A stretch of 64,000 nucleotides of DNA from Planctomycetota bacterium (GCA_044225365.1 JBGAIQ010000004.1:128001-192000); one strand, 5' to 3'. Shown: positions 1 to 31,828, counted from the first letter of the stretch. Notes: generated by a model not told the origin, from the sequence alone. Made by a program: numbers and translations.

Positions 1-429
1 CGCACCGACCTCGGCGACGCGCTCGGCGCCCTTCGCGATGACGATGAACTGGATCAGGACGAGCACGACGAACACGACGCCGCCGACGACGAAATTGCCG
101 CCGACGACCACGTTGCCGAATCCGAAGATGATGTCGCCGGCATTCGCTTCGAGCAGGATGAGGCGAGTCGAGCTGACGTTGAGCGCAAGGCGATAGAGCG
201 TCGTGAGGAGGAGGATGGTCGGGAAGGCCGGGAACTTCAGGAGGTCGCGGATGTACAGCGCGACCATCAGCACGACGACCGACACGCCGAGGTTGACGGC
301 GATGAAGTAGTCCATCGTGTGCGGATGGATCCGCACGACCATGAGCCCGACCGACGCGAGCACCGCGATCGCGAGTGCTACATCGCTGAAGCGATCGAGC
401 TTCTCGAAGAGCTTCCCGAAGAAATTCAT
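1..429 (-). CDS. sctV: T3SS export gate SctV (FlhA/LcrD family), N-terminal 143 aa, truncated by the window edge
   Basis: Not in the ORF track. Manual translation from ATG at 429 gives MNFFGKLFEKLDRFSDVALAIAVL...FPAFPTILLLTTLYRLALNVSSTRLILL...FGNVVVGGNFVVGGVVFVVLVLIQFIVIAKGAERVAEVGA, the FlhA/SctV signature motifs. Confidence 0.96.
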   Translation of the reverse strand, partial: MNFFGKLFEKLDRFSDVALAIAVLASVGLMVVRIHPHTMDYFIAVNLGVSVVVLMVALYIRDLLKFPAFPTILLLTTLYRLALNVSSTRLILLEANAGDIIFGFGNVVVGGNFVVGGVVFVVLVLIQFIVIAKGAERVAEVGA

Positions 430-495
430 CGCTGGGTTCCGTTCGCTGGTGGCTCAGAGGATACGGACAAGAGGGGTGCGACCGCAACGAGCGGA

Positions 496-536
496 GACGC
501 CCGCGAGGAGCTTTTGATGGCTGCCTCGCGGGCGTC
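496..536 (-). terminator. Strong GC stem-loop between the DUF1521-like gene and sctV (terminator-like or mRNA-stabilising)
   Basis: 13-bp inverted repeat GACGCCCGCGAGG...CCTCGCGGGCGTC; no clear U-tract on the minus strand. Confidence 0.5.
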
Positions 537-565
537 CGTTCGATCGCAGGGGGACTGGGATCGGA

Positions 566-1816
566 TCAAAGGGAGAGGTTGCGGATGACGGCCATGCGCT
601 CGTCGTGTTCCGTCTTCAGGATGCTCGTATACATGTTGATCAGCTCGTTCTTCTGCTGCAGGAGTTCCTGGAGCTGGAGTTGGAGCTGCTGCGCCTGTTC
701 CGGCGGGACCTGGCCGCTCGCGAGCGCGTTCTTGATCGCGGTGATCTGCGAGTCGAGGCCACCGAGCTGGCCGAACACCGCGTTCTTGAACGAGTCGCCC
801 GAGTTGCCGACCGTCGGCAGGCCGCCGACCGAACCCGTCGATCCGCCACCGGTCGGGAGACCCGGGAACTTCGGCAGGGAGGGGAAGCCGAAGTCGCCGG
901 GGTTGAAGCCCGGGAGCTTGCCCGGCAGCGGCGACGTGTTGCCCGCGCCATTGTGCTGGATCGCAGCCATGATCGCGGCGATGAGCTGGCGGATGTTGTC
1001 GAAGCCCTGGCCCGGCGTCGGCGCCGTCGGATTCTTCGGGCTCTGGAACGCGCCGCCGTTCTTCAGCAGGTCCTGGATGCGCTCGAGCATCGCCTTGAGA
1101 CCCTGCTGACCGAACTTCGGGAGCGCCTGGTGCGCACCACCCTGGATCAGCTTGAGGAGATCGCCGATGTTCAGGTTCGCGAGTTCGCTCAGCGGCTTCT
1201 TCAGGAGATCGTTCGTGAAGTCGATGGCGCTGTGTCCACCGGCGCCGTCGAGGTTGACTTCACCGAAGCGGGCGGTCGGATCGCCACCGACGATCTGCTG
1301 ACCGTTCGAGGCATAGAACAGGTCGTCGACCTGATTGCCGGCGCGGAGCACCGTGCCGTCGTTCCACAGTTGGTCGAGCTCGAGCGAGCTGTCGAAGTGC
1401 TTGCCGGCCGTCGGCGCGTTCGTGATGTTCTCGACGAGCTCACCACCGCTCGGGGTCATGATCGCGAGGGAGTCGATCGTCGAGATCCCGTCCGCGTTCG
1501 GGGCCGTCGGCTTGATCGTGAGCTTGGTGCCGTCGGCGAGGTCGAGGGTGAGGTTGTCCTTCTGGAACTGCATCTTGTCGCCGTCGCCCGTCGTCAGGTG
1601 CGGGTCGCCCCACGCCTTCACCGACGTCTTGGTCTGCTTGTCGAAGACTTCGACTTCACCGTTCTTGACCGAGATGAGGTAGCGCTGCGTCTCGAATTGA
1701 CCGTTCCCTAGGTTCTTGAGGCCCCCCGGAGGGACCTGGGTTGGAAAACAGCACGCCTGGAGCGTGGACTTGACGTTGTCGAGGCTTGCGAGAGCGGCGG
1801 CGTTGATCTGGGACAT
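566..1816 (-). CDS. Putative T3SS-secreted protein (416 aa): DUF1521/MIIA-like autocleavage domain, Gly/Pro linker, needle/filament-like C-terminal helix
   Basis: Start MSQINAAAL at 1816 with AAGGAG RBS. Contains WGDPH followed by LADGTKLTI and periodic DG motifs. C-terminus is NMYTSILKTEHDERMAVIRNLSL. Lies between sctU and sctV. Confidence 0.75.
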   Translation of the reverse strand: MSQINAAALASLDNVKSTLQACCFPTQVPPGGLKNLGNGQFETQRYLISVKNGEVEVFDKQTKTSVKAWGDPHLTTGDGDKMQFQKDNLTLDLADGTKLTIKPTAPNADGISTIDSLAIMTPSGGELVENITNAPTAGKHFDSSLELDQLWNDGTVLRAGNQVDDLFYASNGQQIVGGDPTARFGEVNLDGAGGHSAIDFTNDLLKKPLSELANLNIGDLLKLIQGGAHQALPKFGQQGLKAMLERIQDLLKNGGAFQSPKNPTAPTPGQGFDNIRQLIAAIMAAIQHNGAGNTSPLPGKLPGFNPGDFGFPSLPKFPGLPTGGGSTGSVGGLPTVGNSGDSFKNAVFGQLGGLDSQITAIKNALASGQVPPEQAQQLQLQLQELLQQKNELINMYTSILKTEHDERMAVIRNLSL

Positions 1817-1880
1817 GACGAACTCCTTGGACTTCTTTGCACCCGGTAGTCCGGGGCGAAGGGGTTTTGTTGATGCCGTA

Positions 1881-1932: not shown

Positions 1933-3075
1933 TTACTCGTTCGCCGCCGGTTCCTCGCCCTTTTCCGCGAGATACGCCTGGACGCGCGTCTCCCAGGGAG
2001 CGAGTTCGCCACGGTCGTGGGCCTTCTCCGCGACCCACTTCAGGAGCTCGGCCACCGCTTCGTTCATTTCCTCGGGGATCTGACGATTCAGCTCTACTTT
2101 GAAGAGCGCCCGGGCGAGCGGTGGATCCTCGCGGATCGGGATCCCCTTCTGATCCGCGATCTCGCGGATGCGCAATGCGACGACGCCCTTGCCCTTCGCG
2201 ATGAGACGAGGCGCGCCCTCCTTCTTCGGATCGAATCGCAAGGCGCAGGCGTAGTGCGTCGGGTTCACGGTGACGACGTCGGCCCCGCCCGATGCGAGGT
2301 TGCGATACATGCCGCCCTGCATGCGTTCGATGCGGGCGCGCTTGATCTTCGCCTTCGTCTCCGGGTCGCCCTCCATCTGCTTGTATTCCTTCTTCAACTC
2401 CTCCTTCGACATCCGGTTCTCCTTGCCGAACTGGAAGCGTTGATAGAAGAAGTCGAAGGCTCCGACGCCGAAGAAGCACGCGAGCGCCCAGCTCACCATG
2501 TCCTTGAGCGCCATCGCTCCGCGATGACTCGCGTCGAGGAGCGGCAACCGCGACAAACGCACGAAGTCCGGCAGGTAGCCCTTCAGGATCTGCCAACTGA
2601 CGAGACCCACGATCATGAGCTTCGTGATGTTCTTCCCGAGCTCGATCCAGGTCCGCATCGAGAAGAACTGCTTCTTCAGACCGCCGATCGGATCGAGGTT
2701 CTCGAGCTTCGGTGTGAGCTTCTCGAACGAGAGGACCGGGCCGACCTGCAGCCACTGGATCAGTCCGCCGACCGCCGCCGTGATCACCATGAACGGAAGG
2801 AACGCGACGAAGAGATCCTTCACCGCGTCGGTGAACGCCTTCACGATGACTTCGTTGTCGAGCCGCCCGCGCACCGCGAGTCCGAAGACGTCCGTCGTCG
2901 TCGTCACCAGCCGCGTACCGAGATCGACCGCGATGAACGACAACGAGGTGTACCCCGCGAGCAGCACGAATGCCGTCGTGAAGTCCCGCGACTGCGGAAC
3001 GTTGCCCTTCTTCCGCAATTCCTCGAGTTTGTGCGGTGATGCTTCTTCGGTCTTGTCGCCGGCGTCGTCGGCCAT
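1933..3075 (-). CDS. sctU: T3SS substrate-specificity switch protein SctU (FlhB/YscU family)
   Basis: DKTEEASPHKLEELRKKGNVPQSRD, MSKEELKKEYKQMEGDP, and the NPTHYA autocleavage motif. Confidence 0.96.
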   Translation of the reverse strand: MADDAGDKTEEASPHKLEELRKKGNVPQSRDFTTAFVLLAGYTSLSFIAVDLGTRLVTTTTDVFGLAVRGRLDNEVIVKAFTDAVKDLFVAFLPFMVITAAVGGLIQWLQVGPVLSFEKLTPKLENLDPIGGLKKQFFSMRTWIELGKNITKLMIVGLVSWQILKGYLPDFVRLSRLPLLDASHRGAMALKDMVSWALACFFGVGAFDFFYQRFQFGKENRMSKEELKKEYKQMEGDPETKAKIKRARIERMQGGMYRNLASGGADVVTVNPTHYACALRFDPKKEGAPRLIAKGKGVVALRIREIADQKGIPIREDPPLARALFKVELNRQIPEEMNEAVAELLKWVAEKAHDRGELAPWETRVQAYLAEKGEEPAANE

Positions 3076-3186: not shown

Positions 3187-4083
3187 TCAACCCTTCTTCT
3201 TCGGAGTCTCGCCCGCCTTTTCTTGGCTCGTCGCCTGCCGCACGAAAGTGGTCCAAGGATCGATCGTGTAAGCGAAGGTGCCCGCCAGCACGGCCGGATC
3301 GGCCGCGAGGAGTCGCTCCGCGCGCGACCGATCGGAGACTCGCAGGATGGCGAGCCCGTGATCGTCGCCGAGTCGCCCACCCATCACGAGCGCTCCAGAC
3401 CCGTAGAGACGCTCCATGTACATCAGATGGTTCAGGATCTTCGGCTGCTCGCCCGGCGATTTGCCGGCGATCCAGTTCGAGCCCGGCGCGAGATGGACCA
3501 CGTACAACGTTTCGGTCTTCGGCAAGGAAGCGAGTCGTGTTCCGAGATCGCTCGGGGATGCGAAACGCTCGGTGAGTCCGTCCAACACGCTCTTCCATGC
3601 CCCTTCGAAGTACGAGTACCCCGCGTCCCACTCCGGTCCATTGCCGAATCCATCGTGCTTCAGCGTGACGTGAGTTCGGCCCGCCGCAGTCTCCTGGAAG
3701 TCGAGCGTCACTTTCGTCGGGAACGGACGCGCGTTCATCGCCGGCATGTCCGGCTTTCCACGCCATTCGAAGACGACCCGCGAATCGGGGACCAGTTCTT
3801 TCATCACACAGCCATTCGTCCCGAGCGAGTCACCGCTTGGATCGACCTCGGGAGCGAAGATCACGCAATAGGCGCCGCCGACGCGAGCGTCGATGCGAGC
3901 GTCGGCCCCCGGGAACACGACCTTGACGCCCGCCGTCGTCGTCCAGAGACGGAAGAGCTCGGCCCGCGACGTGGCGATGTCCACTTGGAGCGTGATGGCT
4001 CGAGGCGTCGGGTCGCTCGGAGCGACGCGCGGTACCGGCGCGGCGAGGAACGCAAGGCAACACAAAAGGATTCGCAAGATCAT
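3187..4083 (-). CDS. Exported SRPBCC/AHSA1-like domain fused to a YciI-like domain
   Basis: Signal peptide; LFRLWTT..G, ARVGGAY, RTHVTLKHDGF..GW-type SRPBCC motifs; C-terminal HLMYM..L..SG.LVMGG...ADPAV YciI pattern. Confidence 0.75.
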   Translation of the reverse strand: MILRILLCCLAFLAAPVPRVAPSDPTPRAITLQVDIATSRAELFRLWTTTAGVKVVFPGADARIDARVGGAYCVIFAPEVDPSGDSLGTNGCVMKELVPDSRVVFEWRGKPDMPAMNARPFPTKVTLDFQETAAGRTHVTLKHDGFGNGPEWDAGYSYFEGAWKSVLDGLTERFASPSDLGTRLASLPKTETLYVVHLAPGSNWIAGKSPGEQPKILNHLMYMERLYGSGALVMGGRLGDDHGLAILRVSDRSRAERLLAADPAVLAGTFAYTIDPWTTFVRQATSQEKAGETPKKKG

Positions 4084-4679
4084 GTGGCCTCCGAGGGCGC
4101 GAAACGATGGAAGAAGCTGCGCAGCACCATGACCGCGCGATCGAAAGGGACGAGGCTCTTAGCGACGCGCGCTTGGAGCACGGCGCCTTCCATCACGGCC
4201 AGCACGAAGACCGCGATGTCCTGAGGATGTGTGCCGGGAGGCAATCGCGTGGCGATCGGCTGCAGGCATCGCGCAACTCCGCCGCGCCAGGCTTCGAACA
4301 GTTCCTCGAGTCGCTTGCGCAACCGAGGATGCGTGTCGGCGATCTCGCCGCCCAGATTGCCGACCGGGCAACCGAGTCGACAGCCCGTCGCCGCGAGGAA
4401 GTCGCGATAGAACTTCAGGATCGCGAACACGCGCTCCACCGGATCGCTCGACGATGCGATCGCAGGGCCCAAGATCTCCTCCTCGAGCCGGATGCTCAGA
4501 TCGTCGAGGATCGCCGCGAGCAGTCGTTCCTTGGAATCGAAGTGATGGTAGAGGCTGCTCGATCCCGCTCGACTCTTCGAGAGGATTTCCGCCATGCCCG
4601 TCGCGGCGAATCCTCGTTCGTGGATCAGTCGCTGGGCCGTCTTCAGGATCGCGGTCGAAGTGGGATGTCGGTCTGCCAC
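4080..4679 (-). CDS. TetR/AcrR family transcriptional regulator (NemR/LmrA-like)
   Basis: HTH AILKTAQRLIHERGFAATGMAEIL...SSLYHHFDSKERL and GCPVGNL. Probable GTG start at 4679 (alternative ATG at 4700); stop overlaps the next start (ATGA). Confidence 0.9.
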   Translation of the reverse strand: MADRHPTSTAILKTAQRLIHERGFAATGMAEILSKSRAGSSSLYHHFDSKERLLAAILDDLSIRLEEEILGPAIASSSDPVERVFAILKFYRDFLAATGCRLGCPVGNLGGEIADTHPRLRKRLEELFEAWRGGVARCLQPIATRLPPGTHPQDIAVFVLAVMEGAVLQARVAKSLVPFDRAVMVLRSFFHRFAPSEAT

Positions 4680-4686
4680 GCCGCAG

Positions 4687-4714
4687 ATTGTATCGATCAT
4701 TCCACTCAGTTCAA
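4687..4714 (-). promoter_or_regulatory. Sigma70-like promoter of the TetR gene, probably leaderless transcript
   Basis: TTGAAC-N16-TACAAT followed 7 nt later by the GTG codon at 4679. Confidence 0.55.
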
Positions 4715-4799
4715 GACGAGGCGAACGGAGCCGCGGTGAATCGCGCGGACGGGCCCGCCGAGGTAGAATCGTCGCGCAACTCACTCCGAGGCTCACATC

Positions 4800-5864
4800 A
4801 TGTCGCGCACTTCTTCGATGATCGCCCTTCCGCTCGCTGTCTTCATCACCGCTGTCTGTGCGAGCGCTTCGGCGCAGCAGATCGTGTTCGACGACTTCAA
4901 CCGGCCCGATTCGACGAGCCTCGGCCCGAACTGGGTCGAAGCGAACGGCGACTTCGTCATCCAGTCGAACGTGTGCCGCGGCAACGTGCTGTTTGCGAAC
5001 GATACGTGGATGTACAACACCCCGTTCCAGCAGACCTACACGAACACGAAGGTTCGCGTCGACTTCTCGAAGACCGCGGGAGACAACCTGTTCGCCGCGG
5101 GCGTCGGCTTCGGGCTCGACCCGAATACCTGGGGCGGCGTCACGATCCTGATCCAGGACAACAACCTCGACGGCCATTTCGACCGCATCTTCTTCGAGGC
5201 AGCGATCAACGCCGGCGCGTGGTTCTCCCAACCGACTCCGATCTTCTTCGACTTCCCGTTCCAGGTCGACGCCGGGCAGCTCACGGTGTGGGCCGAGGAC
5301 AACGGCAATCGCGCCGTCGCGCGCGTCGAGGACGCGAGCGGCAACCTCATCGGGACCTACAGCGCGGCCGGAATCGTCGGCTCGCCCTTCCCACCGACGG
5401 GAACCCGCGCGGGCGTGTGGGTCCGCAGCAAGGCGCGCGTCGACAATTTCTTTGCGATCCAGCATCGGAAGCTCGACGCCTATCCCGCGGCGCTCTCCGT
5501 CGCGACGGGCGGAACACAGACCCTCGACGTCTCCCTCGGCTCCGCATTCGCAGGTCAGACCTACATGCTGCTCGGTGCGCTCAGCACTTCGAGCCCGGGA
5601 ACACCGATCGGCGGAGGCGTGCTCTTGCCGCTGGCCGTCGATCCCGTGCTCCTGTGGACCGTCTCGAACCCGAACGTGCCGCCCTACGACTCCTCGTTCG
5701 GAGCGCTCGACTCCGTGGGTCACGCCCGTGCGCGCTTCGTTCTCCCGCCCGCCGCGCTCCCGTCGCTCGTTGGAGTCACTCTCCAGCACTGTGCCATCGC
5801 GATCAAGCCGAACAACGTGCCTTCGACCGCGACGAACACCGCCTCGCTGACGTTCAACCCCTGA
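4800..5864 (+). CDS. Exported beta-sandwich (ConA-like) protein with a conserved C-terminal domain
   Basis: Signal peptide ending ASA-Q; FDDFNRPD..LGPNW start; C-terminal about 120 aa similar to that of 52845..53858. Confidence 0.75.
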   Translation: MSRTSSMIALPLAVFITAVCASASAQQIVFDDFNRPDSTSLGPNWVEANGDFVIQSNVCRGNVLFANDTWMYNTPFQQTYTNTKVRVDFSKTAGDNLFAAGVGFGLDPNTWGGVTILIQDNNLDGHFDRIFFEAAINAGAWFSQPTPIFFDFPFQVDAGQLTVWAEDNGNRAVARVEDASGNLIGTYSAAGIVGSPFPPTGTRAGVWVRSKARVDNFFAIQHRKLDAYPAALSVATGGTQTLDVSLGSAFAGQTYMLLGALSTSSPGTPIGGGVLLPLAVDPVLLWTVSNPNVPPYDSSFGALDSVGHARARFVLPPAALPSLVGVTLQHCAIAIKPNNVPSTATNTASLTFNP

Positions 5865-5885
5865 TCGCGAACTCTCGCGCCGCCT

Positions 5886-7811
5886 TCAATTCTCGAGCAG
5901 CTGAATCACTCGCAGCGCCGAGTTCGGTCGCTCCGAGGTGAGCCTCACGGCCACGACGTGATCGGCATCGGGCAATTCGTCGTCGAGGATGAGCGCCCAC
6001 GGCAGGTGAAGGGACGCACTCCAAGGAGTCCTGGTGTCGACGCGGCGCCACGCTCCGGTGTCGACGCGAAATTCGATGATGCCCGTATCCGGTCCCGCAG
6101 CGAGGAGCAATCCCGCTGCGGTGCCGCGAAAGTCGAACTCGAACGCCGCTCCCGGTACCTCGGCGACGAGTGCCGGCACGCGAACGAATCCCTCACGGGT
6201 TTCCTTACCGTCCTTCGGCTCGAAGCGCGGATCGAGCACGAATCCGTTCAGCTTGGCTGCGGCGAGATCGCCGAATCGTCCTCGTCCATAGGAGAGCGGA
6301 TCGACCGGCGCCGGGAGGGGATGATCCTTCCTCGTCGGAGATCCTCCCGTCCACGCGGCGTCGAGGAGCCTCGCGATCCCGTTCGCATAGAGTTGCTGGC
6401 CGAACGGTGAAGGATGCAGATCCCGAAAGTCCGCGGCCCACGTGAATTGCCCGGCGCGAATGCGCTCGTACACCTCGCGCGAGAGCTGGACCGATGGACA
6501 GCCATATTGCGCGGCGACCCGTTCATGCGCCTCGATCGTGTAGGGCTGTTCTCCCTGGCCGTAGATCGGGAGATGTTGGTCGTGGACGAAATGCAGCATC
6601 ACGATGTCGGTGGCAGGACTCGAAGTTCGTAGATGACGAACGACGCCCTCCATGCCGCGTAGCGCCAGTTCCTTGCGGTTCGGTAGTTCGTCGTAGTTGT
6701 GATCGTTCACCGCTGCTTCGACGAATACGAGGTCGGGGATCCCGTGCGAGAGCACATCCTTCTCGAGACGAAACGCGTGCGGAACGGATCCGAGCGACGG
6801 GATTCCGGCAGCCACGAACTCGAACTTCGTGTCGGGAAAATGCTGCTGTATGCAATGCATGACGGCGTCGCGCCATCCGGGATTGAACGTGATCGATCCC
6901 CCGACGAAGGCGACGCGACCCACCTTGTCCGTCATGAACCGCGACCGGCAATTCTGCAATCCGTCGCGCAGGGAGTCGTATTCCACGGGCTTCGCCGCAC
7001 GGGGGAGAACAGTCGTCCAGCGCATGACGAAGCGCGCCGAATCGAACACGGCGGGCAGCTCGAAGTGATGACCGTTGCTCTCCTTCGTTCCATGCTCCAC
7101 GCTCACGATCTCCATCACGTGGCCGAGCTTCTCGAGGCGTCGTCTCGCTTCCAAAGTGTTTGCTTCGGGCGGTACGACCTCGTCATCGAGGCTTATCACG
7201 TGACGCAGCGGGATCCCGGCTCTCGCGATGGGCTCGAGCACATTGGAATCGACCGGATTGCCGCGATAGGCCCGCAGAGCGGCGACGTCATCGAATCCGA
7301 AGGCACGCAGCGCATCCGCGACCTCTTTCGACGCGCCTGGCCACGAAAGCGGCCAGCTCGCGAGTTGCATGACCGGAGTGTCGGCATAGATACAAGCGAT
7401 GCGCTCGGGACGACGCGCTGCATACCGATACGCGGACAGCCCGCCGCGACTCACCGCCTCGAGAGCCGGCTTCTCGGCCAGGCCGTATTCGCTGCGCAGC
7501 GATTCATAGAATCCATCGAAGATGTCGAGCGCGGCGTCGCAACCGAGCATGTCGACACAGTCGACGTAGGCGACGTACCAGCCATGATTCAGCAATTCGA
7601 TGTCGACTTCGGGGTGGAAGTCCGGGAACGAGGTGCGCCAGATCCATGGTTTTCCCGCGGCCGCGACGCGCGGAATCGTGACGAATGCCAAATGGCGGTC
7701 GAAGATGAATTCCTTTCGCTCGAATCCATTCCACGCATTCCCCGCCCGGCTTTGCGGCAGGACGAGAGTGAGAACGAAGAGAGTCCACCACGCGTGCATT
7801 CTCATCGTCAT
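5886..7811 (-). CDS. Exported bifunctional alpha/beta hydrolase plus SGNH/GDSL esterase
   Basis: AVSRGG nucleophile elbow; FVGGSIT, VEAAVND and DLHPS SGNH blocks; start at 7811 overlaps the upstream stop (ATGA). Confidence 0.85.
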   Translation of the reverse strand: MTMRMHAWWTLFVLTLVLPQSRAGNAWNGFERKEFIFDRHLAFVTIPRVAAAGKPWIWRTSFPDFHPEVDIELLNHGWYVAYVDCVDMLGCDAALDIFDGFYESLRSEYGLAEKPALEAVSRGGLSAYRYAARRPERIACIYADTPVMQLASWPLSWPGASKEVADALRAFGFDDVAALRAYRGNPVDSNVLEPIARAGIPLRHVISLDDEVVPPEANTLEARRRLEKLGHVMEIVSVEHGTKESNGHHFELPAVFDSARFVMRWTTVLPRAAKPVEYDSLRDGLQNCRSRFMTDKVGRVAFVGGSITFNPGWRDAVMHCIQQHFPDTKFEFVAAGIPSLGSVPHAFRLEKDVLSHGIPDLVFVEAAVNDHNYDELPNRKELALRGMEGVVRHLRTSSPATDIVMLHFVHDQHLPIYGQGEQPYTIEAHERVAAQYGCPSVQLSREVYERIRAGQFTWAADFRDLHPSPFGQQLYANGIARLLDAAWTGGSPTRKDHPLPAPVDPLSYGRGRFGDLAAAKLNGFVLDPRFEPKDGKETREGFVRVPALVAEVPGAAFEFDFRGTAAGLLLAAGPDTGIIEFRVDTGAWRRVDTRTPWSASLHLPWALILDDELPDADHVVAVRLTSERPNSALRVIQLLEN

Positions 7812-24374: not shown

Positions 24375-24877
24375 CGGTCGGGGTCGGTCGACCAATTCAC
24401 TGGATTCGCGCGAATGTAGTCGCGCGCGGCATCGAGTTCGCGTTCGTCGCGCACGATCCGATCGAAGAATCCGCGCTGCCAGATCACCCCGCCCGGACTG
24501 TTCAGCATGGTGCGGGCTCGCGTCGTCACCGCCGCTTCGAACTGAGCGATCAAGGAGGACAGCGAACGTGACGGACGAGCGAGACGAGTGCGCTGTTCTT
24601 GTTCCGGACCGGACCCGTCGATCTGCACGATCGCATGAAAGTGGTTCGGCATGATCACGAACTCGTCGAGTCGGATCTCCGTGCGAATCGCCGCGCTTCG
24701 AACCCATTCCTCGCTGACGATCCTGCCGACCGGGATGAGGAGAACCTGATCGTCGGAGATGTTTCCGAAGATGCAGCGCTTGTCCTTCGTGCAGATCGTC
24801 ACGAAATACCAACCGTCCGACCCGTAGTCGTAGCCGGGAAGGCGAGAGGACTGCCGATCGGGACGCGGAGGTTCCAT
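24371..24877 (-). mobile_element. REP-associated tyrosine transposase (RAYT, Y1 HUH, IS200-like)
   Basis: RLPGYDY...YFVTICT, VIMPNHFHAIV (HUH), WQRGFFDRIVRDE...DYIRANP; flanked by REPs. Start at 24877 or 24910. Confidence 0.9.
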
Positions 24878-25024: not shown

Positions 25025-25735
25025 TCACAGCCCTCGCTCCAGTTGCTTCTTCAAGTCGGCGAAGGCGGCGTCGACGCCGGCGTGGTACGCCGCGCGATTT
25101 GCACCGATCTCGATGCGAACGGACGAGCGTTGGAGCGTGCGGTCCTCCACGACGGCGGGAGTCTCGGGAAGCTGCATCTTCTCGGCGAGCTTCGCGGCGG
25201 CGGACTGGACGATGGAGACGTCGTCCGGATGCAGGTAGATCACGATTCCCGACGCTCCGAAGCGCGCCTTCTCGAGCGCGTTCTTCACGAACTCCACGAT
25301 GCGCTCCGGCTTCACCACGAACTCGCACTCGACCACGCGATGCGCGAGCTTGAAAGCGTAGGCGACGACGTCCTTCGGGTACTTGTTGGTCCACGACTCG
25401 ACCGCCTGACGCATCGACGTCAACAACGCCTCCACGCGCTGCGTGACGGCGGCGCGCGCTTCGTTCGCGGCGTTGACCTTGATCTTCTCCGCTTCGATCT
25501 CGGCGGCCGCGCGCAGATCGACGGCCTTGTCCTTCGCCTCCTGCACGATGCGCGCCGCCTCCGCTCGCGCTGCCGCGAGTTCGGCAGCGGCGGCGGCCTT
25601 CAATTCGTCGATCTCGACCGCGCTCTTCTTGAGGAGTCGGGCGGCCGAATACAGCGGTGCGATCGCGATCGCGTCACCCTTCAGGATGCGCGCTTGCGAT
25701 GTGCCGCCTTGATTCGTCTCGACCGGGTCGACCAT
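25025..25735 (-). CDS. sctL: T3SS stator SctL (FliH family)
   Basis: ARILKG N-terminus, AxxEAxxI repeats, IYLHPDD motif; upstream of sctN. Confidence 0.88.
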   Translation of the reverse strand: MVDPVETNQGGTSQARILKGDAIAIAPLYSAARLLKKSAVEIDELKAAAAAELAAARAEAARIVQEAKDKAVDLRAAAEIEAEKIKVNAANEARAAVTQRVEALLTSMRQAVESWTNKYPKDVVAYAFKLAHRVVECEFVVKPERIVEFVKNALEKARFGASGIVIYLHPDDVSIVQSAAAKLAEKMQLPETPAVVEDRTLQRSSVRIEIGANRAAYHAGVDAAFADLKKQLERGL

Positions 25736-25782: not shown

Positions 25783-26676
25783 TCACTGTGTAAGAAAGAC
25801 TTGCTCGGCGAGCGCCTCCGCGATCGCCCACTCCTCGCTGCCCGCCGCGATCGGCAACACGTCGCTCTCGTTCAGCTTCTTCACGATCACGGTGACCGCG
25901 AGTTCCATGGCGCGCATGCGCAGGGATTCGTCGAGCGCCTTGAACAACGTCGCGAGCAAGGTGCGACCGAGGAGGTCGCCGACCCGCTTCGGTCCGCGCG
26001 TCGGATCGGAAGCGATCCTCTGCCAGGCCGCAAGCCACTCACTCACCAGCTTCGATTCGACGACGGGCTGCGCCGCCCCGCGCGCCGCAGCCTCCTGCGA
26101 CTCCGCGATGAGTTCGAGCACGCGACGCACCGTGTTCGAATGGAGTGGACGCAATCGCGTACGCACATCGAGCTCGGGATTCGCGAGCAATGCCGCCGCG
26201 ATCATGCGCGCCGAGAGCTCCATGCATCCGCGCTGGACGATGTCGCCCGACGCCTTTGCGAGCGCGACGAAGAGCGGAGGCAGACTGCCCCACACGGTCA
26301 CCACTTCGGCGTGGCGGTCGATATCGCGACGTCGCAACCAGTACGCGAGCGGCTCGCGCGTCTGGAGATTCCGATCGACGTCGATCCCGAAGCGTTCGGC
26401 CTCGAGCATCGCAAGTTCGTCGAACAACAGATCCGTGAACGATGCCGCCGTCGACGTCGTTTCGCGGATCGATTCCGCCTCGGGATGCAGCTCGAGCATG
26501 TGCTCCGCGAGCGCCTCCCCCGCGCCTCCCCGCCGCTTCAGATCCGCGAGCAGGAACGACCATGCCTCGCACTTGAAATCGCGTGGAGGCGGGGACGGCG
26601 GACCGCGGAGCGTCTCGTCGCCCGCGCCTTCCACGCTTTCCATGCCGCCTGGACCGAGGAGCGATTCGCCCGTCAT
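25783..26676 (-). CDS. Hypothetical helical protein in the SctK position
   Basis: Between sctJ and sctL; no diagnostic motif recognised. Confidence 0.55.
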   Translation of the reverse strand: MTGESLLGPGGMESVEGAGDETLRGPPSPPPRDFKCEAWSFLLADLKRRGGAGEALAEHMLELHPEAESIRETTSTAASFTDLLFDELAMLEAERFGIDVDRNLQTREPLAYWLRRRDIDRHAEVVTVWGSLPPLFVALAKASGDIVQRGCMELSARMIAAALLANPELDVRTRLRPLHSNTVRRVLELIAESQEAAARGAAQPVVESKLVSEWLAAWQRIASDPTRGPKRVGDLLGRTLLATLFKALDESLRMRAMELAVTVIVKKLNESDVLPIAAGSEEWAIAEALAEQVFLTQ

Positions 26677-26718: not shown

Positions 26719-27738
26719 TCAGCGCCGCGTCAGCTTGCGAAGGGCGGCGCGCGCCTTGATGACCGAGATGATGCAGACGACGGCGACGAGACCCAGGGCG
26801 ATCAGACCGACCTGATACAAGAGATCGCGACCGCCACCACTCGACGCGCCCGGATTCGGCGCTTCACTCGCCAGGAGCTTGCGCCGCGCACCGTCCGGAT
26901 CGCTCTTGAAGTCACGCTCGACTGCATCGACGAAGGACGCCCATTCCGGAGCCGCGAGGAACGACTTCGGCATCTCGCCGCTGCCGCTCGCGACCGCAGC
27001 GACGTCGCCCGACCGGAGAACGCCTGGCTGACCCTCCACGGTGACCATCACGCCAACGTGCTTGGGATCGAGACCCTCGACGCCGTTCGCAACCGATTGA
27101 CGGACGAACTCGGAATCGGTCTTCGCGACGAAGGGCGCGTCGGGCGTCACACTCGCCGCAGGTGCGTTCGCATCGAGGAACGGCTTCGCGTAGGTCGCAT
27201 CGCGGAACTTCAACATCACCGACGCCGAGGCCGGCGTCTTGTCCTTCGGCTCCGCTCCGCGGGCGTCCTTCGGCATCGCGATCGCGACGCGCACGTCGAT
27301 GACACCGGGAATCGTGAGCAGGGAATTCTGCAGCTCGCCTTCCTTCGCGTGGATGTAGCGAGCGCGGTCCTCGGTCTCGCTCGGAATGAGCTTGCCGCCG
27401 GCGAACATCTCCTCGAAGCCGGGATACTTGATCCGGGGGCGATTGCTGCGAACGAGGTCGCGAAACGCACGGTCGAGGTCGTCGTGGGTGCAGTCGAGGA
27501 TCTTGATCTCCCAGACCGTCTTCTGCCCGTCCTTCACCGCCTCCTTCACGGCGGTCAGGTGCGAGGCCTCCAGGCTGTCGTGGAGCAGATCGAGGATCTC
27601 GATCGCGTCGCGCTCGTCCGGGACGCGCACCAGTTCGCGATTCTCGCGATCGCCGCACGCCGTGGCCAACGCGAGCAGCATCGCCCCGAATCCGAGGCAA
27701 CGCCCGCGCCTGCCGAATTTCGACCTCTGCTCGTCCAT
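26719..27738 (-). CDS. sctJ: T3SS inner-membrane ring lipoprotein SctJ (YscJ/PrgK family)
   Basis: Lipobox LATAC; ERDAIEILDLL; LIPSETEDRARY..AKEGELQNSLLTIPGVIDVRVAI; PASASVMLK; VANGVEGL; C-terminal TM. At 339 aa it is too short for FliF. Confidence 0.92.
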   Translation of the reverse strand: MDEQRSKFGRRGRCLGFGAMLLALATACGDRENRELVRVPDERDAIEILDLLHDSLEASHLTAVKEAVKDGQKTVWEIKILDCTHDDLDRAFRDLVRSNRPRIKYPGFEEMFAGGKLIPSETEDRARYIHAKEGELQNSLLTIPGVIDVRVAIAMPKDARGAEPKDKTPASASVMLKFRDATYAKPFLDANAPAASVTPDAPFVAKTDSEFVRQSVANGVEGLDPKHVGVMVTVEGQPGVLRSGDVAAVASGSGEMPKSFLAAPEWASFVDAVERDFKSDPDGARRKLLASEAPNPGASSGGGRDLLYQVGLIALGLVAVVCIISVIKARAALRKLTRR

Positions 27739-27859
27739 CTCGATTCCTCGTTCGTCGTCCGTCGCCAACCCGTTTGCTTCGCGATCGACCGGCCGTCCGG
27801 TCCGACTGGGTCGGCTGGGGCAAACAGAATACCGGTTGTCGGGCCCCTTGTGGCCCGCC

Positions 27860-28402
27860 TCAGATTTGCGTCTGCATCGCGGTCTTCGCCGCCGATGTGC
27901 CGTGTTCGACCACTTTGGAGGCGACCTCCATCGCGAAGGACACGTCGTTCATCTCCATTTGCAGGGCCAGGAGGTTCACGTTGTAGTTGTCGTAGAAGTC
28001 CTTGATCTCCGGCCTTCGATCGCGGACCGTCGGGTCTTCTTTGATCGCTTCGCGGTAGCCCTTGTCGCGCTTCACCAGTTCATCCATCCGACCGTGGACC
28101 TTGCTCCAGGCCTGGAAGACTCCGTCGAGCATGCCCGACTTCTTCACGTCGACCGGCGCGGTCACTTTGGTGGTCTCGGCGACCGCCTGGGTCGGCGCGG
28201 GCGGCGCCGCTGATTGGCCCTGCGCGAGCGATCCCGTGCTCACCTGCGTCGAGTTCGACGGCTGCGGTGGTCCCGCGAGTTGGTGTTGCGAGATGAAATC
28301 CTTCGCACCCTGAACGACCTCATGGACCCATTTCTCGAGATCGACCGGCGGCTTCGGCGCGGGTTGCGCCGGCATCGCAGTGAGTGGATCGATGAGTCCC
28401 AT
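27860..28402 (-). CDS. sctI: Putative T3SS inner rod protein SctI
   Basis: Start MGLIDP at 28402; C-terminus LLALQMEM...EVASKVVEHGTSAAKTAMQTQI; directly upstream of sctJ. Confidence 0.75.
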   Translation of the reverse strand: MGLIDPLTAMPAQPAPKPPVDLEKWVHEVVQGAKDFISQHQLAGPPQPSNSTQVSTGSLAQGQSAAPPAPTQAVAETTKVTAPVDVKKSGMLDGVFQAWSKVHGRMDELVKRDKGYREAIKEDPTVRDRRPEIKDFYDNYNVNLLALQMEMNDVSFAMEVASKVVEHGTSAAKTAMQTQI

Positions 28403-28433: not shown

Positions 28434-28808
28434 TCAGGCTCCGCGCGAGGCGCGGTCGAACAGATCGTTGAACAAGGAACGCAATCGAGGTTCGTCCTCG
28501 AATGCGGCGGAAACGGATTCCCGCATCTTCGGCGTCGCTGCCTTGCCGAACGCTTCATCGAGCTCGGCACCGACGACTTCGTGAAGGATCTGGTCCTTCG
28601 AGAGATTTCGCGCGAGGCCGTCGCGGATGCGAGCATGCATCCGCGCTGCGAGCGCTGCGTCCGAACCCGCCGTCGGCGCAACGGGGCCGACGCTGCCGAC
28701 CGACTTGATGAAGTCGGTCTTGCCGACCTTGTCGGGTCCTTGCGTCGATTGCGGACCCCGAGGCTTCTCGGGGCCGCCTGCGCCTTGCGATCGATCGATG
28801 CGGGTCAT
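28434..28808 (-). CDS. Hypothetical T3SS-associated protein (124 aa)
   Basis: In-operon ORF with GGAG RBS; disordered N-terminus and helical C-terminus. Confidence 0.7.
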   Translation of the reverse strand: MTRIDRSQGAGGPEKPRGPQSTQGPDKVGKTDFIKSVGSVGPVAPTAGSDAALAARMHARIRDGLARNLSKDQILHEVVGAELDEAFGKAATPKMRESVSAAFEDEPRLRSLFNDLFDRASRGA

Positions 28809-28854: not shown

Positions 28855-29295
28855 TCACGCCGGCGGCGGACGCTTCAACGCTTCGACGTACGATCGCGCC
28901 GCCTCGGCCTCGTCGCTTCCGGGATCGAGTTCGATCACCTTTGCGAAGGCCTTCTCGGCGAGCGCGGGCTTGCGATGGAGGACCCACGCCTCGCCCTTCT
29001 TGCGGAAGATCATCGCGAGCGTCCTGGCGTCCGCGTGCGGGCTCTTGGCCGCACGATCGTACTCCTGGATCGCCCCCGAAAGATCCTCGCGCTGCCGCTT
29101 GCTGTCGCCCAGTCCGATGAACCCGGTCGCGTCGTTCGGCGCCAGCGTCGTGATCGCTCCGAAGATCACTTCCGCCTCCTCCGCGCGATGCAGATCGAGG
29201 CAAAGGAACCCGGCCTCGGCGAGGAAATGGAGCGGCTCCTGATCTTCTTTCAGATGGAGCTGCTCCGAGAGTTGGGATTCCTTCGCCTTGCCCAT
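28855..29295 (-). CDS. TPR protein, probable needle chaperone (YscG/CdsG-like)
   Basis: About three TPR motifs (AEEAEVIF..., AIQEYDRA, AEKAFAKVIELDP); directly downstream of the needle gene. Confidence 0.7.
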   Translation of the reverse strand: MGKAKESQLSEQLHLKEDQEPLHFLAEAGFLCLDLHRAEEAEVIFGAITTLAPNDATGFIGLGDSKRQREDLSGAIQEYDRAAKSPHADARTLAMIFRKKGEAWVLHRKPALAEKAFAKVIELDPGSDEAEAARSYVEALKRPPPA

Positions 29296-29342: not shown

Positions 29343-29684
29343 TCACGGCCGCATGTTGCGCACGAGGTTCATCCGCGATTCGTGCTCCGTCTTCGAGATG
29401 TTCGAGATCATCGAGAACGTCTGCATCTCGAGCTGGAGGCGATTCTGTTCCTCGAGCAACGTGGCGAGATCGCTCGTGCCGCCCGCACCTCCGGCGCCGC
29501 CGCCCGCGAGCCCACCGGTCTTGCCACCGATGGCGCCGCCGAGCGCCGACTTGCCGACGGTGCCCGCACCATTCAGCAGCATCCCGAAGGATGCGGAAAG
29601 GCCGTCATACCAGTTGCCCGTAGACGCGGACCCGGAATTGTAGACGGCGGAGAAGTTCGCTGCGCTGTTGACGTTGAGACCCAT
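29343..29684 (-). CDS. sctF: Putative T3SS needle subunit SctF (113 aa)
   Basis: AAGGAG RBS before MGLNVNS; C-terminus SNISKTEHESRMNLVRNMR fits the needle pattern SNxxKxxxD/ExxxxhhxNhR (compare PrgI SNTVKVFKDIDAAIIQNFR). Confidence 0.75.
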   Translation of the reverse strand: MGLNVNSAANFSAVYNSGSASTGNWYDGLSASFGMLLNGAGTVGKSALGGAIGGKTGGLAGGGAGGAGGTSDLATLLEEQNRLQLEMQTFSMISNISKTEHESRMNLVRNMRP

Positions 29685-29763: not shown

Positions 29764-29792
29764 GTTCTCGGCGGAAGAACGACAAGTGTTGC
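29764..29792 (-). promoter_or_regulatory. Repeated promoter-like motif, copy upstream of sctF
   Basis: Minus strand reads (T)GCAAC-N15-GCCGAGAAC. Confidence 0.6.
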
Positions 29793-29856
29793 AGTGGAAC
29801 TCGCGACCCTCAAACCTCGACGAGGCTGGCGAGACTCCCCACGAAGTCGCCGTAAG

Positions 29857-30147
29857 TCACTTTTGGTTATTCGGTAAAGCGATCTGTATCGCGACGGAAG
29901 CGGCGAGCTCCATCGCGCGAAGCACGCGCTCCGCTTCCTCGCGACGTTTGTGATTCGTCTCGCTTGCCCGAATCTCCTCGACGGCCCGGCGGACGTCCTC
30001 GACGAATCGCCGAAGCCGCGGCTCGGGCGCGCCGGACCGCAGCTCTCCCACGATCGAGAGCAGCGTCGGGTAGCGCTGTTTCAACAGCCCCTCGATCGCG
30101 TCGGTTCCCAAATCGGCCTCGCGATTTCGATCCATCGGCTCGTTCAT
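29857..30147 (-). CDS. Small helical protein, candidate YscE/CdsE-like needle co-chaperone
   Basis: Start MNEPMD at 30147 (ATGA overlap); 96 aa, ends RVLRAMELAASVAIQI...; E-F-G gene order. Confidence 0.5.
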   Translation of the reverse strand: MNEPMDRNREADLGTDAIEGLLKQRYPTLLSIVGELRSGAPEPRLRRFVEDVRRAVEEIRASETNHKRREEAERVLRAMELAASVAIQIALPNNQK

Positions 30148-31625
30148 CTCGTGCCTTCCTTCGGATTCGATATGACTTCGTCGCGGCGGACGCGCAAGCG
30201 ATGCAGGCGTTCGTCGGCGGCGCTCTCCGCCGCGGGCGGAAGCTCGACCGCGAGCTCCTCGAGCGCGAGCAGCCACTGTTCGCAAGCGACTCGATTGCGC
30301 TCGAACTCTCGTTTCGCCGCGGCGTCCTTTCCCGCGAACGGCGCATAGAAGCGCAATGTCGCGAGGTCGTAGCCGACGCGCACGGCGATGAGATCGAACA
30401 ACAGCCCGGGATCCTGCGCGATGCGCTTTCCCGGCGTGCCGATGAACTCCGCCGTCAAATTCTCGACCGATTCATAGAGGGAGCGTTTCGTGGCGATCTC
30501 GGTCGCGACGTCGTTCAGTTCGACGAAGCGCGAGACGCGGAACTCGGCGTAACCGCAGATCGCCGAGAAACACGCAAAACGCACGCGGGGGTCGTTTCGG
30601 ACCATCGGACCGTTGTTCTCGATCATCGAGCGAGCGATGTCGTAGGCCGCGAGGAAGGAGTCGTCGGTGCGCGTCGGCAGCTCCGTCGCGAGGCGGAGCT
30701 GGACCTTCAAGAGTTCGAGCTTCGCTTCGAAGCAGTTGGGATCGAGCTTGCCGAGGAGATCGTCGAGGTTCTTCTTGTATTGCGCGAGGAGCACGGGCGT
30801 CACCGGCTGCTTCTCGAAATCGAACCGCGCGAGATCGAACGCGAGCGTGCCGAGTCGGTGGCGCGCCTTCAGTTTGCCGATCACGTCGACGCCCTGCGCA
30901 GCGATCGATGCGTCGTTCGAGTGCCCTCCGCCGCCTGCGGCGGTGACCGCGTCGATCGGTACCGCGGCCTTGTTCCCGAGGTCGAACGCGAGATAACGGT
31001 CGATCACGCGCAGGCGCTCCAGCATCTCGAGCGGCGGCGTCAGGAGGTTCGAGTAGAAATCGTCCTGGGGAGGCAGGGGATCGTCCATCCGGCCGCCGTG
31101 TTCGAGCCAGCAAATCGCACGCTGTGCGTCCTCGAGGTCCTTCTTGGCCTGAGCGAGCGCCTCGATGGTCATGTCCGACTGACGTCGCGTGAGGTGGAGT
31201 TCCGCGCGCAGCAGGAATGCGGGCGCAAAACCCTTGTCCTCGGCCGCAGCGGCGGTCGCGAGTCGCAGCGCTTCCTCGACACCGTCGGCCCCGTTCGCTT
31301 CGAGCACGAGCTTGCCGAGCACCGTCTTGGACAACCCGTTCCGCCCGCCGCCCTGCGCATCCGCCTGCCGCGCCTTCTCGATCGCGGCCTGCATGTGCGA
31401 GGTGAACTCAGGGCCGCGCTGGACGAGCGCGTGAGCACGCCCCCACTGCTCGAGGCAGTCCTGGATCAGCGTCTCGACTTCCTTGCTCGGACGATCGACG
31501 GGGGGCGGCGGCGGCACGACGGGCTGCGGACAGCCCACGGCGAGAAGCAGCACGAAACTGGGAACGATGAGATCGCACAGTCGGCGAGCCCAGCTTCGGT
31601 GAGTCGGGTCGTACCTCCGGCGCAT
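30144..31625 (-). CDS. TPR-like alpha-helical lipoprotein, first gene of the T3SS operon
   Basis: Lipobox LAVGC, Pro-rich tether, TPR-like helices; translationally coupled to the next gene. Confidence 0.7.
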   Translation of the reverse strand: MRRRYDPTHRSWARRLCDLIVPSFVLLLAVGCPQPVVPPPPPVDRPSKEVETLIQDCLEQWGRAHALVQRGPEFTSHMQAAIEKARQADAQGGGRNGLSKTVLGKLVLEANGADGVEEALRLATAAAAEDKGFAPAFLLRAELHLTRRQSDMTIEALAQAKKDLEDAQRAICWLEHGGRMDDPLPPQDDFYSNLLTPPLEMLERLRVIDRYLAFDLGNKAAVPIDAVTAAGGGGHSNDASIAAQGVDVIGKLKARHRLGTLAFDLARFDFEKQPVTPVLLAQYKKNLDDLLGKLDPNCFEAKLELLKVQLRLATELPTRTDDSFLAAYDIARSMIENNGPMVRNDPRVRFACFSAICGYAEFRVSRFVELNDVATEIATKRSLYESVENLTAEFIGTPGKRIAQDPGLLFDLIAVRVGYDLATLRFYAPFAGKDAAAKREFERNRVACEQWLLALEELAVELPPAAESAADERLHRLRVRRDEVISNPKEGTR

Positions 31626-31800
31626 CGTTCCTCTCCTGCCTCGAGCCTCGAATCCGAGCCATGCATTGCAAGATCGTCGATCGGCGACTCGCCCACTCCA
31701 ACGAGCTCGCCAAAGGGCGATGGGCGGAGTCTACCGGTCGACGAACTCGACCGAGCACGCGACCGAGCAAGAAGCGCCGACGACGCGTGTCTCGGCGAGA

Positions 31801-31828
31801 GGGATCGGCCCGATTCGGCGATCGTTGC
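31801..31828 (-). promoter_or_regulatory. Repeated promoter-like motif, copy upstream of the T3SS operon
   Basis: Minus strand reads (T)GCAAC-N14-GCCGATCCC. Confidence 0.5.

Follow-up and report, generated by a model that had tools for sequence, protein, structure and literature searches.

A deep-branching non-flagellar type III secretion gene cluster with a distinctive parts list in a planctomycete

The stretch of DNA described here, 64,000 nucleotides long and referred to below as the window (GCA_044225365.1, JBGAIQ010000004.1:128001-192000), belongs to a member of the Planctomycetota and carries, at positions 1-31625 and almost entirely on the minus strand, the genes of a non-flagellar type III secretion system (NF-T3SS). 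To judge from the sequence, this is a real, rare and deep-branching NF-T3SS with a distinctive parts list, whose function we infer. We consider it probable that the cluster codes for an intact system of a distinct deep lineage, called clade A below, that this system exists beside an ordinary flagellum, and that it assembles in the manner proposed further on. The genome (G000) is a 6.53-Mb assembly of 103 contigs, 94% complete, in which the secretion genes lie on the 255-kb contig C34. We found no description of an NF-T3SS of Planctomycetota in the literature open to us; subscription journals and supplementary tables, including the 'uncharacterised' loci of Abby and Rocha, were beyond reach.

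Genes were called with a codon-usage model trained on the same genome, and the calls were checked with Pfam and NCBIfam. In the direction of transcription the cluster begins with the genes for a lipoprotein, a 96-residue open reading frame (ORF), the 113-residue protein F113, a TPR protein, a 124-residue protein, the 180-residue protein I180, SctJ, a 297-residue protein and SctL. It continues with a Y1 transposase gene, sctN, the genes for a 160- and a 302-residue protein, sctQ, a FliO-like gene, sctR, sctS and sctT, a 14.6-kb block of other genes, sctU, a DUF1521 gene and sctV. All nine core genes named in the initial annotation (sctV, U, T, S, R, Q, N, L and J) were recovered on the minus strand with Pfam, and NCBIfam agrees. 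The annotation was right in its gene content and needs correction in its layout, as sctV leaves the window, the 14.6-kb block parts sctU from sctT and the transposase gene (Y1_Tnp) parts sctL from sctN. The four-nucleotide overlaps that it described were borne out by four ATGA and one GTGA in the 21 junctions examined. Eight out of eight genes of the core non-flagellar set (SctJ, N, Q, R, S, T, U and V) lie inside 36 kb on one strand; in the available text of Abby and Rocha (2012) and of TXSScan, at least seven of these eight have to be clustered.

The window holds the 5' part of sctV, that is its first 143 codons (1-429, minus strand, as are all genes of the cluster below unless another strand is given; FHIPEP, 9.1e-48). 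The complete gene (G000:C34:126309-128429), which ends beyond the left edge of the window, codes for 706 amino acids, and the whole protein scores 570 bits on the SctV model TIGR01399 versus 518 bits on the FlhA model, each under its cut-off. The export switch gene sctU (1933-3075; Bac_export_2, 1.4e-104) encodes the autocleavage motif NPTH at residue 271, and its product obtains 329.7 bits with the FlhB model versus 304.4 with the SctU model. A flagellar model is likewise ahead for sctT (17802-18587; Bac_export_1, 2.7e-52; FliR 145.7 bits versus SctT 115.2) and for sctS (18610-18879; Bac_export_3, 1.3e-26; FliQ 88.4 bits versus SctS 64.5). SctR (18892-19662; FliP family, 8.6e-59) scores 190 bits with the non-flagellar and 172 with the flagellar model, and beats the cut-off of the EscR/YscR/HrcR subfamily model NF009438 (207.3 bits versus 179). 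The sorting-platform protein SctQ (20144-21307), with a C-terminal SpoA/FliN domain (FliMN_C, 3.6e-08), matches SpaO_YscQ at 35.9 bits versus 24.4 for FliN, and the ATPase SctN (22791-24146; ATP-synt_ab, 2.8e-76, plus T3SS_ATPase_C) gives 482.1 bits with the SctN model TIGR02546 versus 458.5 with the best FliI model. The stator SctL belongs to the FliH family (25025-25735; FliH, 1.3e-15). SctJ, the inner-membrane ring lipoprotein (26719-27768; YscJ_FliF, 3.3e-13), reaches 82.8 bits with the SctJ model TIGR02544 versus 25.9 with FliF; the called protein of 349 residues carries a lipobox-like LATAC and, at 314-332, a C-terminal transmembrane segment, and its true start is probably an internal one (MDEQ..). 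The view that the ring protein is a short SctJ lipoprotein and not FliF is thereby upheld, a separate FliF being present as a 541-residue frame on contig C95. Across the NCBIfam models, V, N, R, J and Q lean to the non-flagellar side and U, T and S to the flagellar side, nearly all of them under the equivalog cut-offs, which is the mixed pattern expected of a deep intermediate lineage.

A FliO-like single-pass membrane protein is encoded between sctQ and sctR (19659-20147; PF04347, 3e-11; TIGR03500, 55.9 bits versus a cut-off of 55.25), and its gene is kept at the same position in three other planctomycete genomes, G142, G360 and G386. FliO was considered as a peculiarity of clade A and this was ruled out, PF04347 being present also inside the NF loci of Archangium and Bryobacterales, so that FliO is not restricted to flagella among deep NF lineages. 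Matches of this family over the cut-off were seen in NF loci at G004:C669:19143-19364, G004:C56:6970-7116, G436:C3:11796-12011 and others.

The position of the system was examined with trees of three of its proteins. For SctV/FlhA the rows were the 39 best database matches, 80 named genome loci, planctomycete loci and the FlhA and SctV of five proteobacterial genomes; the 80 loci are a sample, at least 80 being among the matches listed, and the scan that gave them left out the window's own genome. In a FastTree of 156 rows, 34 flagellar rows were split from 122 non-flagellar rows with support of 100, and the query fell in a 42-row clade (100) that was sister to all other non-flagellar rows (95). 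This clade contains all 39 database matches, a Phycisphaeraceae metagenome-assembled genome (MAG; locus L003) and the same-phylum genomes G386 and G360; one database match, P0033, is the same protein as that of L003, and the five SctV matches that carry an organism name are all from Planctomycetota or Phycisphaerales. An IQ-TREE analysis under LG+C20 of 74 of the 156 rows, chosen by the analyst, recovered the non-flagellar rows (100) and clade A (24 rows; 100). There clade A stands outside a group (96) of Bryobacterales, Acidobacteria and one Archangium lineage, in which Chlamydiae and the classical injectisomes are nested together (99); at the base of the non-flagellar part, clade A, two further Myxococcota lineages and one MAG emerge as a polytomy. 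Clade A is thus separate from the group of Chlamydiae and classical systems, and its relation to the myxobacterial lineages is a polytomy in this tree.

The SctU tree (58 rows) has an FlhB clade (27 rows; 98) without the query, which joins G386 and G360 (92), and the SctN tree (56 rows) has a FliI clade (21 rows; 98) without the query, which joins G360, G386 and a Phycisphaeraceae MAG, G001 (100). The host's own flagellar FlhA, FlhB and FliI group with those of genomes of the same family. The system had been called non-flagellar in the initial annotation, and SctV, SctU and SctN indeed all branch outside the flagellar clades; the agreement of the three markers points to a non-flagellar lineage of its own. 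The further suggestion of a deep lineage not yet described finds support in the SctV clade (100), which lies outside the group of Chlamydiae and classical systems (99) and apart from the Myxococcota clades. Clade A has so far been seen only in Planctomycetota. As a separate observation, two Myxococcota ATPases, L175 (G432:C167) and L183 (G441:C90), one of them from an Archangium genome, fell inside the FliI clade (98); myxobacteria are not known to have flagella.

The system is rare. A second full-length FHIPEP gene was found in none of the other 41 genomes of the host order, 11 of which are in the same family, and the long SctV matches within that order are 34-37% identical, the same level as the host's own FlhA (36%). 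Among 401 sampled genomes of the phylum, the closest SctV has 42% identity; in public metagenomes, two relatives have 80% and 74% and the next at most 48%. The order lipoprotein-small ORF-F113-TPR-124-residue protein-I-J-K-L-N-O-P-Q-FliO-R-S-T-U is kept in G000, G142 and G386, and in G360 without the small ORF. The run of G142 starts with a 456-residue lipoprotein, a 101-residue ORF, an F113 homologue, a 154-residue ORF, a homologue of the 124-residue protein, a 151-residue ORF and SctJ, and goes on with a 289-residue ORF, SctL, SctN, a 191-residue ORF, an SctP-like protein, a 349-residue ORF, FliO and SctR, S, T and U; its sctV and DUF1521 genes lie about 14-20 kb from this contiguous run. 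The locus of G360 is in two pieces and that of G386 has an insertion. The same set and order therefore recur in four genomes of four families at 21-57% protein identity. In G000 the frames of the cluster are open, none of them broken, with the four-nucleotide overlaps kept, and the G+C content is 0.645 versus a genome mean of 0.651 (standard deviation 0.011, 14-kb windows). At least three further SctV lineages were noticed in the phylum sample, G186 and G204 near the Acidobacteria/Myxococcota type, G301 and G370 near Desulfovibrionaceae, and G274 near Verrucomicrobia (L096-L100), so that NF-T3SS genes have entered or persisted in Planctomycetota several times.

For the candidates that had been placed by position (O, P, K, I, F and an E/G pair), independent support was obtained in part. 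F113 (29343-29684) is a needle-like protein in the SctF position with homologues in G360, G386 and G142; its N-terminal part is rich in glycine, and its last 35 residues are nearly invariant across the homologues. A database search returned six matches, which are five distinct relatives (57-63% identity) and one near-identical copy. When F113 was compared by hhalign with three needle proteins from named genomes, the C-terminal helices aligned (P 0.0054, probability 6.7%). Single-sequence searches of the PDB with F113 and with the DUF1521 protein gave low-complexity or GDPH-motif matches only. The neighbouring gene codes for a TPR chaperone resembling YscG/PscG (28855-29295; TPR_2, 8.3e-07), and it stands beside F113 in G360 and G386 too. 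Complex prediction for the TPR protein and F113 gave an ipSAE of 0.79 versus 0.08 for the best of three controls, a mark that, as a rough guide and with our own alignments supplied, 58 of 80 solved complexes and 2 of 110 mismatched pairs attained; at least 87% of the contacts were common to the runs, the partner pLDDT (predicted local distance difference test) was at least 69, and the contacts were at F113 residues 88-113. The TPR protein is thus predicted to bind the C-terminal helix of F113. The pair presumably resembles the solved needle-chaperone complex PscE-PscF-PscG.

I180 (27860-28402), in the SctI/FliE position directly upstream of sctJ, has a C-terminal helix that is conserved in alignment and ends in ..SK.(V/I)EH..S...T..QTQ(I/V/A). 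In G360 and G142, as in G000, the gene in this position immediately precedes sctJ. In G386, sctJ coincides with a locus junction and was not called; the counterpart of I180 there lies upstream of the sctJ region. The 124-residue protein in the yscH position (28434-28808) is without a family match in Pfam; G360 (E 3.8e-13) and G142 (E 2.3e-11) each encode a homologue in that place. A helical protein of 96 residues is assigned to the yscE position by its place (29857-30147); ORFs of 82-101 residues sit there in G386 and G142, with no detectable sequence likeness among them. The leading gene of the operon encodes a 493-residue lipoprotein (30144-31625) with a lipobox-like LLAVGC. A lipobox is present in all its positional counterparts (857 residues in G360, 456 in G142 and 429 in G386), which are similar to one another, and the G000 copy has no detectable likeness to them; weak TPR signals were seen in those of G360 and G386. 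Directly after sctN, with an ATGA overlap, lies the gene for a coiled-coil protein of 160 residues in the SctO/FliJ position (22312-22794), charged and helical, with a YscO-like match at E 2.6 as its sole Pfam trace and assigned by position.

A search of 1.84 billion representatives found only 18 relatives (E<=0.001) of the 297-residue protein encoded between sctJ and sctL (25783-26676), whose AlphaFold (AF2) model has a pLDDT of 90. In a structural search of 48,161 chains, this model ranked PscK of P. aeruginosa first (6uie_B; Z 6.6, root-mean-square deviation (rmsd) 3.5 Å, 113 residues aligned, model residues 132-297), with the next match at Z 5.4, 1.2 lower, over about 50 aligned residues. 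PscK is exactly the protein expected between sctJ and sctL, and we therefore call the 297-residue protein SctK-like, a sorting-platform candidate for which structure and profile scores are each weak alone. Foldseek found no match of the model in the PDB (best E 0.8). FliG chains among Foldseek's top 572 chains gave only Z 3.4-3.6 with an rmsd of 14-19 Å. ARM/HEAT/TPR-like leads from the ESM Atlas (0.88-0.92, low recognition) were not used.

Between sctO and sctQ, a 302-residue protein (21407-22315) is a candidate SctP/FliK-like ruler and substrate switch. Its N-terminal part is disordered and its C-terminal domain at 218-301 folded and T3S4-like (AF2 pLDDT about 80); this domain is conserved in four genomes, and the protein has no Pfam match. 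Foldseek against 350,542 chains placed the PscP SS domain 5cuk second (E 0.025, prob 0.98, TM by target 0.46) and the FliK C-terminal domain 2rrl third (E 0.046). A wide structural search with the model gave a list filled by matches to the long N-terminal helix.

A hallmark of the system is a DUF1521/MIIA-domain protein of 416 residues, a candidate secreted substrate (566-1816; PF07481, 31.9 bits versus a cut-off of 23.6). Its GDPH motif at residues 70-73 is invariant in three of three aligned homologues, and the surrounding block KAWGDPHLTTGDGD (KAxGDPH..T.DGD) is conserved in G360 and G386. Over its last 24 residues the protein resembles the C-terminal end of F113 (BLASTP E 7e-06); when all six frames of the whole genome were scanned, this shared C-terminal motif turned up in the F113 and 416-residue frames only. 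The gene adjoins sctU in G000, G360 and G386; in G142 the distances are about 14 kb to sctU and about 3 kb to sctV. It is present in all four mapped clade-A loci, G001 not having been searched for it, and a DUF1521 profile, built from three of the four genomes that it matches, hit only these (G000, G142, G360 and G386, of four different families) among 401 genomes of the phylum. An alignment scan of metagenomes gave a single locus, L136, with SctV 5 kb away. As observations on G386, its DUF1521 match (G386:C12:28008-28958) carries one in-frame TGA and its sctR was called as two ORFs of 63 and 147 residues (L127:14668-15311, plus strand); a frameshift or an assembly error in the MAG could explain both.

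According to the available text of PMC6506597, the MIIA domain of VIC_001052 and the type III-secreted NopE proteins fold in response to calcium and cleave themselves behind the aspartate of GDPH, and both NopE1/2 and VIC_001052 are linked to T3SS. NopE1 and NopE2 of Bradyrhizobium and VIC_001052 of Vibrio coralliilyticus have in common with clade A the DUF1521 domain, the GDPH motif and a gene in a T3SS cluster; unlike them, the clade-A protein is fused to a C-terminal helix that it shares with the needle-like protein. Fixed presence of the gene in the mapped loci, mostly beside sctU, suggests that the product may be a structural or cap component and not a host-specific effector. The fixed fusion of MIIA domain and needle helix offers a concrete idea of what DUF1521 proteins do.

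Clade A shares with the Ysc-type systems of Yersinia, Pseudomonas and Aeromonas the same core, a TPR chaperone beside the needle gene, NPTH in SctU and, as weak matches, a PscK-like fold and a PscP-like T3S4 domain; its gene order parallels yscE-F-G-H-I-J-K-L followed by N-O-P-Q-R-S-T-U. It differs from them in having a FliO-like gene, in the Gly-rich N-terminal part of F113 where the Ysc needle has a helix, and in that no SctC, SctD, SctW, tip or translocon was found in the cluster. Its SctV is 34-39% identical to those of proteobacterial systems among the matches listed.

Parts that would be expected around such a core were sought in the genome. None of the genome's 13 PF00263 secretin matches is on contig C34, and the SctC model TIGR02516 gave at best 111.1 bits versus a cut-off of 238.45; on the T3SS contigs of G142, G360, G386 and G001 there is likewise none of their 29 secretin matches, so that the five clade-A genomes are alike in this respect. 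The best match to the SctD model has 24 bits versus a cut-off of 86, with traces at the level of FHA domains on other contigs, and no protein of the cluster has the SctD-type bitopic FHA architecture. Families of tip, translocon or gatekeeper proteins were not seen among the cluster genes, the rest of the genome not having been searched for them. The search of the remaining genome that had been advised thus returned a full set of flagellar genes on other contigs, no SctC-type secretin and no SctD over the cut-off.

We propose that a base composed of the SctJ ring, the SctRSTUV/FliO gate and a SctK-Q-L-N-O platform would export I180 and F113 as early substrates, under the control of a SctU/SctP switch. 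The TPR chaperone would keep F113 monomeric in the cytoplasm by way of its C-terminal helix, the helix through which F113 would polymerise, giving on the SctJ/export-gate base a filament that is short and controlled in length. The MIIA protein would be exported, join the structure by the same helix and cleave itself between GD and PH on calcium outside the cytoplasm. Candidates for the crossing of the outer membrane would be the leading lipoprotein, one of the 13 secretins acting in trans, a structure that ends in the periplasm, or a partner machine as in Myxococcus. The sensor kinases embedded in the 14.6-kb block probably regulate expression of the system. Predation, contact with eukaryotes and the assembly of a surface filament, the uses put forward in the initial annotation, would be candidate roles.

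Several results weigh against this reading. The split between non-flagellar and flagellar rows is weak in the SctU tree (69), as are the deep nodes of the SctN tree (36), and the deep order of SctV differs between FastTree, with the query's clade sister to all other non-flagellar rows (95), and IQ-TREE, with its polytomy that includes Myxococcota. For SctU, SctT and SctS, the flagellar NCBIfam models outscore the non-flagellar ones. No route is known to a periplasm-spanning basal body that has neither SctD nor a secretin; a part encoded in trans could be missing from the 94%-complete assembly or be present and unrecognised. F113 has no match to PF09392 (E<=10), nor has TIGR02105 any in the genome (E<=1); the N-terminal half of F113 is Gly-rich and not helical, and the hhalign probability is low, just 6.7%. 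Similar needle complexes have already been solved, so the score of the TPR-F113 pair indicates likeness and is not independent proof. I180 has no relative of known function in Pfam or by profile against the PDB, and its assignment is positional. For the SctK-like protein, a Z of 6.6 is under the level that the tool deems clear for helical proteins, and the best PDB sequence match of the profile in the same region is FliG (3hjl_A, E 0.054). The T3S4 matches of the SctP-like protein, at E 0.025 and 0.046, are below the clear level, with none at E<=0.001.

Of the other explanations, the one that survives best, though we hold it to be unlikely, is that the system works as the needle-less T3SS* of myxobacteria does, as a basal body with neither needle nor outer-membrane part that cooperates with another envelope machine on neighbours; F113 and I180 would then be minor periplasmic or rod parts. 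The available text of PMC10433427 describes the M. xanthus T3SS* as having SctD, J, I, Q, RSTUV, N, L and LcrH-like chaperones and as lacking secretin, needle and translocon; in prey lysis it works jointly with a Tad-like machine (PMC10433427; PMC12075869, as far as available), the Kil system (PMC10433427). The Myxococcales-type systems (the 'Myxo' group; M. xanthus MXAN_2434-2464), as described in the available text of PMC10433427 and of Abby and Rocha, and clade A are both deep non-flagellar lineages of free-living hosts whose loci are without secretin, translocon and tip. They also share the SctRSTUV, J, Q, N and L core, and FliO-like genes occur in the NF loci of Archangium, as in those of Bryobacterales. 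The IQ-TREE polytomy of clade A with several Myxococcota lineages, the lack of matches to needle models and the 13 secretin genes elsewhere in the genome, which could serve in trans, would fit such a system as well. However, clade A is apart from every Myxococcota row with support of 100 in both SctV trees, so that the two form separate, fully supported clades. Myxococcus is described with SctD and without a needle (PMC10433427, available text), whereas in clade A the best SctD match stays at 24 versus 86 bits and there is a needle-position protein with a TPR chaperone predicted to grip its helix in the manner of needle chaperones. The order F113-TPR-I180 and the SctP-like protein are conserved, and the SctK-like, SctP-like and DUF1521 proteins set clade A apart from the Myxococcus system. 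F113, the 124-residue protein, I180 and DUF1521 gave no tblastn match in the Myxococcota loci examined.

It is a highly improbable alternative that a flagellar export apparatus was duplicated, diverged and now serves a second structure, either flagellum-like or periplasmic. It would account for the FliO-like gene, for the preference of SctU, T and S for the FlhB, FliR and FliQ models and for the FliG match of the K-position profile; the order J-K-L-N-O-P-Q-O-R-S-T-U-V, which equals fliF-G-H-I-J-K..M/N-O-P-Q-R-flhB-flhA, also counts in its favour. The host has a flagellum of its own, and this has homologues of the export gate, the ATPase complex and FliO of clade A. The genome contains two FHIPEP genes, the flagellar FlhA on C95 (780 bits) and the SctV of the cluster (598 bits); C95 and C70 together carry the flagellar set, with the FliF-type ring protein (541-residue frame, 189.7 bits), a second FliO and FliI, and five of five rod-family and two of two flagellin matches of the genome are on one or the other. 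SctV is 36% identical to the host's FlhA and SctN 44% to its FliI, but SctV, SctU and SctN stay outside the flagellar clades that hold the host's own FlhA, FlhB and FliI, and the ring protein is a short SctJ-type lipoprotein (82.8 versus 25.9 bits on FliF). The earlier statement that flagellar genes are missing from the cluster is in line with our results: none of the called genes of the window matched a Pfam family of rod, hook, flagellin, FliG or FliM, MotA and MotB being unsearched in the genome, and the genes of the cluster include no FliE family member.

That the cluster is a decaying, non-working relic of a horizontally acquired T3SS is scarcely credible, for although the 14.6-kb block and an IS200-like gene interrupt it, the 41 other genomes of the order lack it and no secretin or SctD was found, its core frames are open and of full length, NPTH and the coupling overlaps are kept, the gene set and order, small genes included, are maintained in four families at 21-57% identity, metagenomes hold SctV relatives at 80% and 74%, and its G+C content equals that of the genome.

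Returning to an intact system of a distinct lineage, its possible place in the history of injectisomes can be set beside that drawn by Abby and Rocha (2012). In the available text of that work, NF-T3SS are reported solely from Chlamydiae, Proteobacteria and Verrucomicrobia, with the non-flagellar root between a Myxococcales group without secretin and SctF and all other systems. The ancestor is argued there to have had an SctF-based structure and no secretin, and injectisomes to have arisen from flagella through a secretin-less intermediate known only from the needle-less myxobacteria. We suggest tentatively, as a possibility that we rather doubt, that clade A is the earliest, or among the earliest, of the surviving non-flagellar branches, that it had FliO, a needle subunit with its chaperone, SctK and SctP before SctD and secretin were recruited, and that its filament is capped or decorated by a self-cleaving MIIA protein bearing the needle helix. 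If so, needle, ruler and sorting platform would have arisen before the rings that span the periplasm, and the architecture would have no described counterpart among T3SS.

Clade A is a second, independent secretin-less lineage from another phylum, which appears to keep a needle-position subunit, chaperone, ruler and SctK-like adaptor without SctD. It adds a further reference for working out in which order injectisomes acquired their parts, and may help to show how they originated from flagella. The rules of Abby and Rocha and of TXSScan demand a secretin, as far as their available text goes, so that a clade-A locus would not be called. Detectors with this requirement would miss clade A, and T3SS diversity in environmental phyla is thus probably undercounted. 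The unusual envelope of Planctomycetota makes the working of a T3SS there a question in itself.

The embedded block between sctU and sctT (3187-17774, 14.6 kb, mostly minus strand; Pfam) codes for an AHSA1/YCII protein (3187-3984), a TetR regulator (4080-4700), an ORF without family that is the sole one of the block on the plus strand (4818-5864), a GDSL lipase (5886-7799), an ADI/DDAH-like enzyme (7808-8620), a hybrid kinase-receiver (8647-10344) and a HAMP-array hybrid histidine kinase of 2463 residues (10383-17774) with 14-15 HAMP domains, GAF, HisKA/HATPase and three receivers. The last gene begins 27 nt past sctT. From sctT through the GDSL gene the gaps are of 8-38 nt on one strand, which suggests that the kinase-to-lipase genes may be co-transcribed with sctQRST. 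GDSL lipase genes also flank both halves of the G360 locus (L129:7952-9301, plus; L134:1585-3099 and L134:3112-4710, minus). As conserved effectors these lipases are unproven: their likeness to each other stops at the domain, and no such gene was flagged in either G142 or G386. The IS200-like Y1 transposase gene between sctL and sctN (24371-24877; PF01797, 27.9 bits versus a cut-off of 23) is absent from that place in G360 and G142.

The right half of the window carries genes for a PSCyt1/PSCyt2/PSD1 protein, a DUF1501 protein and an extracytoplasmic function (ECF) sigma factor with a long C-terminal extension, exactly the neighbours from which a Planctomycetota host had been suggested. At 35938-38928 on the plus strand there is a 996-residue fusion of a Ser/Thr kinase domain and an FGE-sulfatase domain. 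Genes for Ser/Thr kinases crowd the clade-A loci of G360, G142 and G386, and the same family is found on dozens of G000 contigs; the large proteins that recur near the clusters are such kinases and were set aside as not specific to the system. ARAGORN called an 85-nt tRNA-Ile(GAT) at 43372-43456 on the plus strand, inside the PSCyt/PSD1 gene and on the opposite strand, which is probably a false call.

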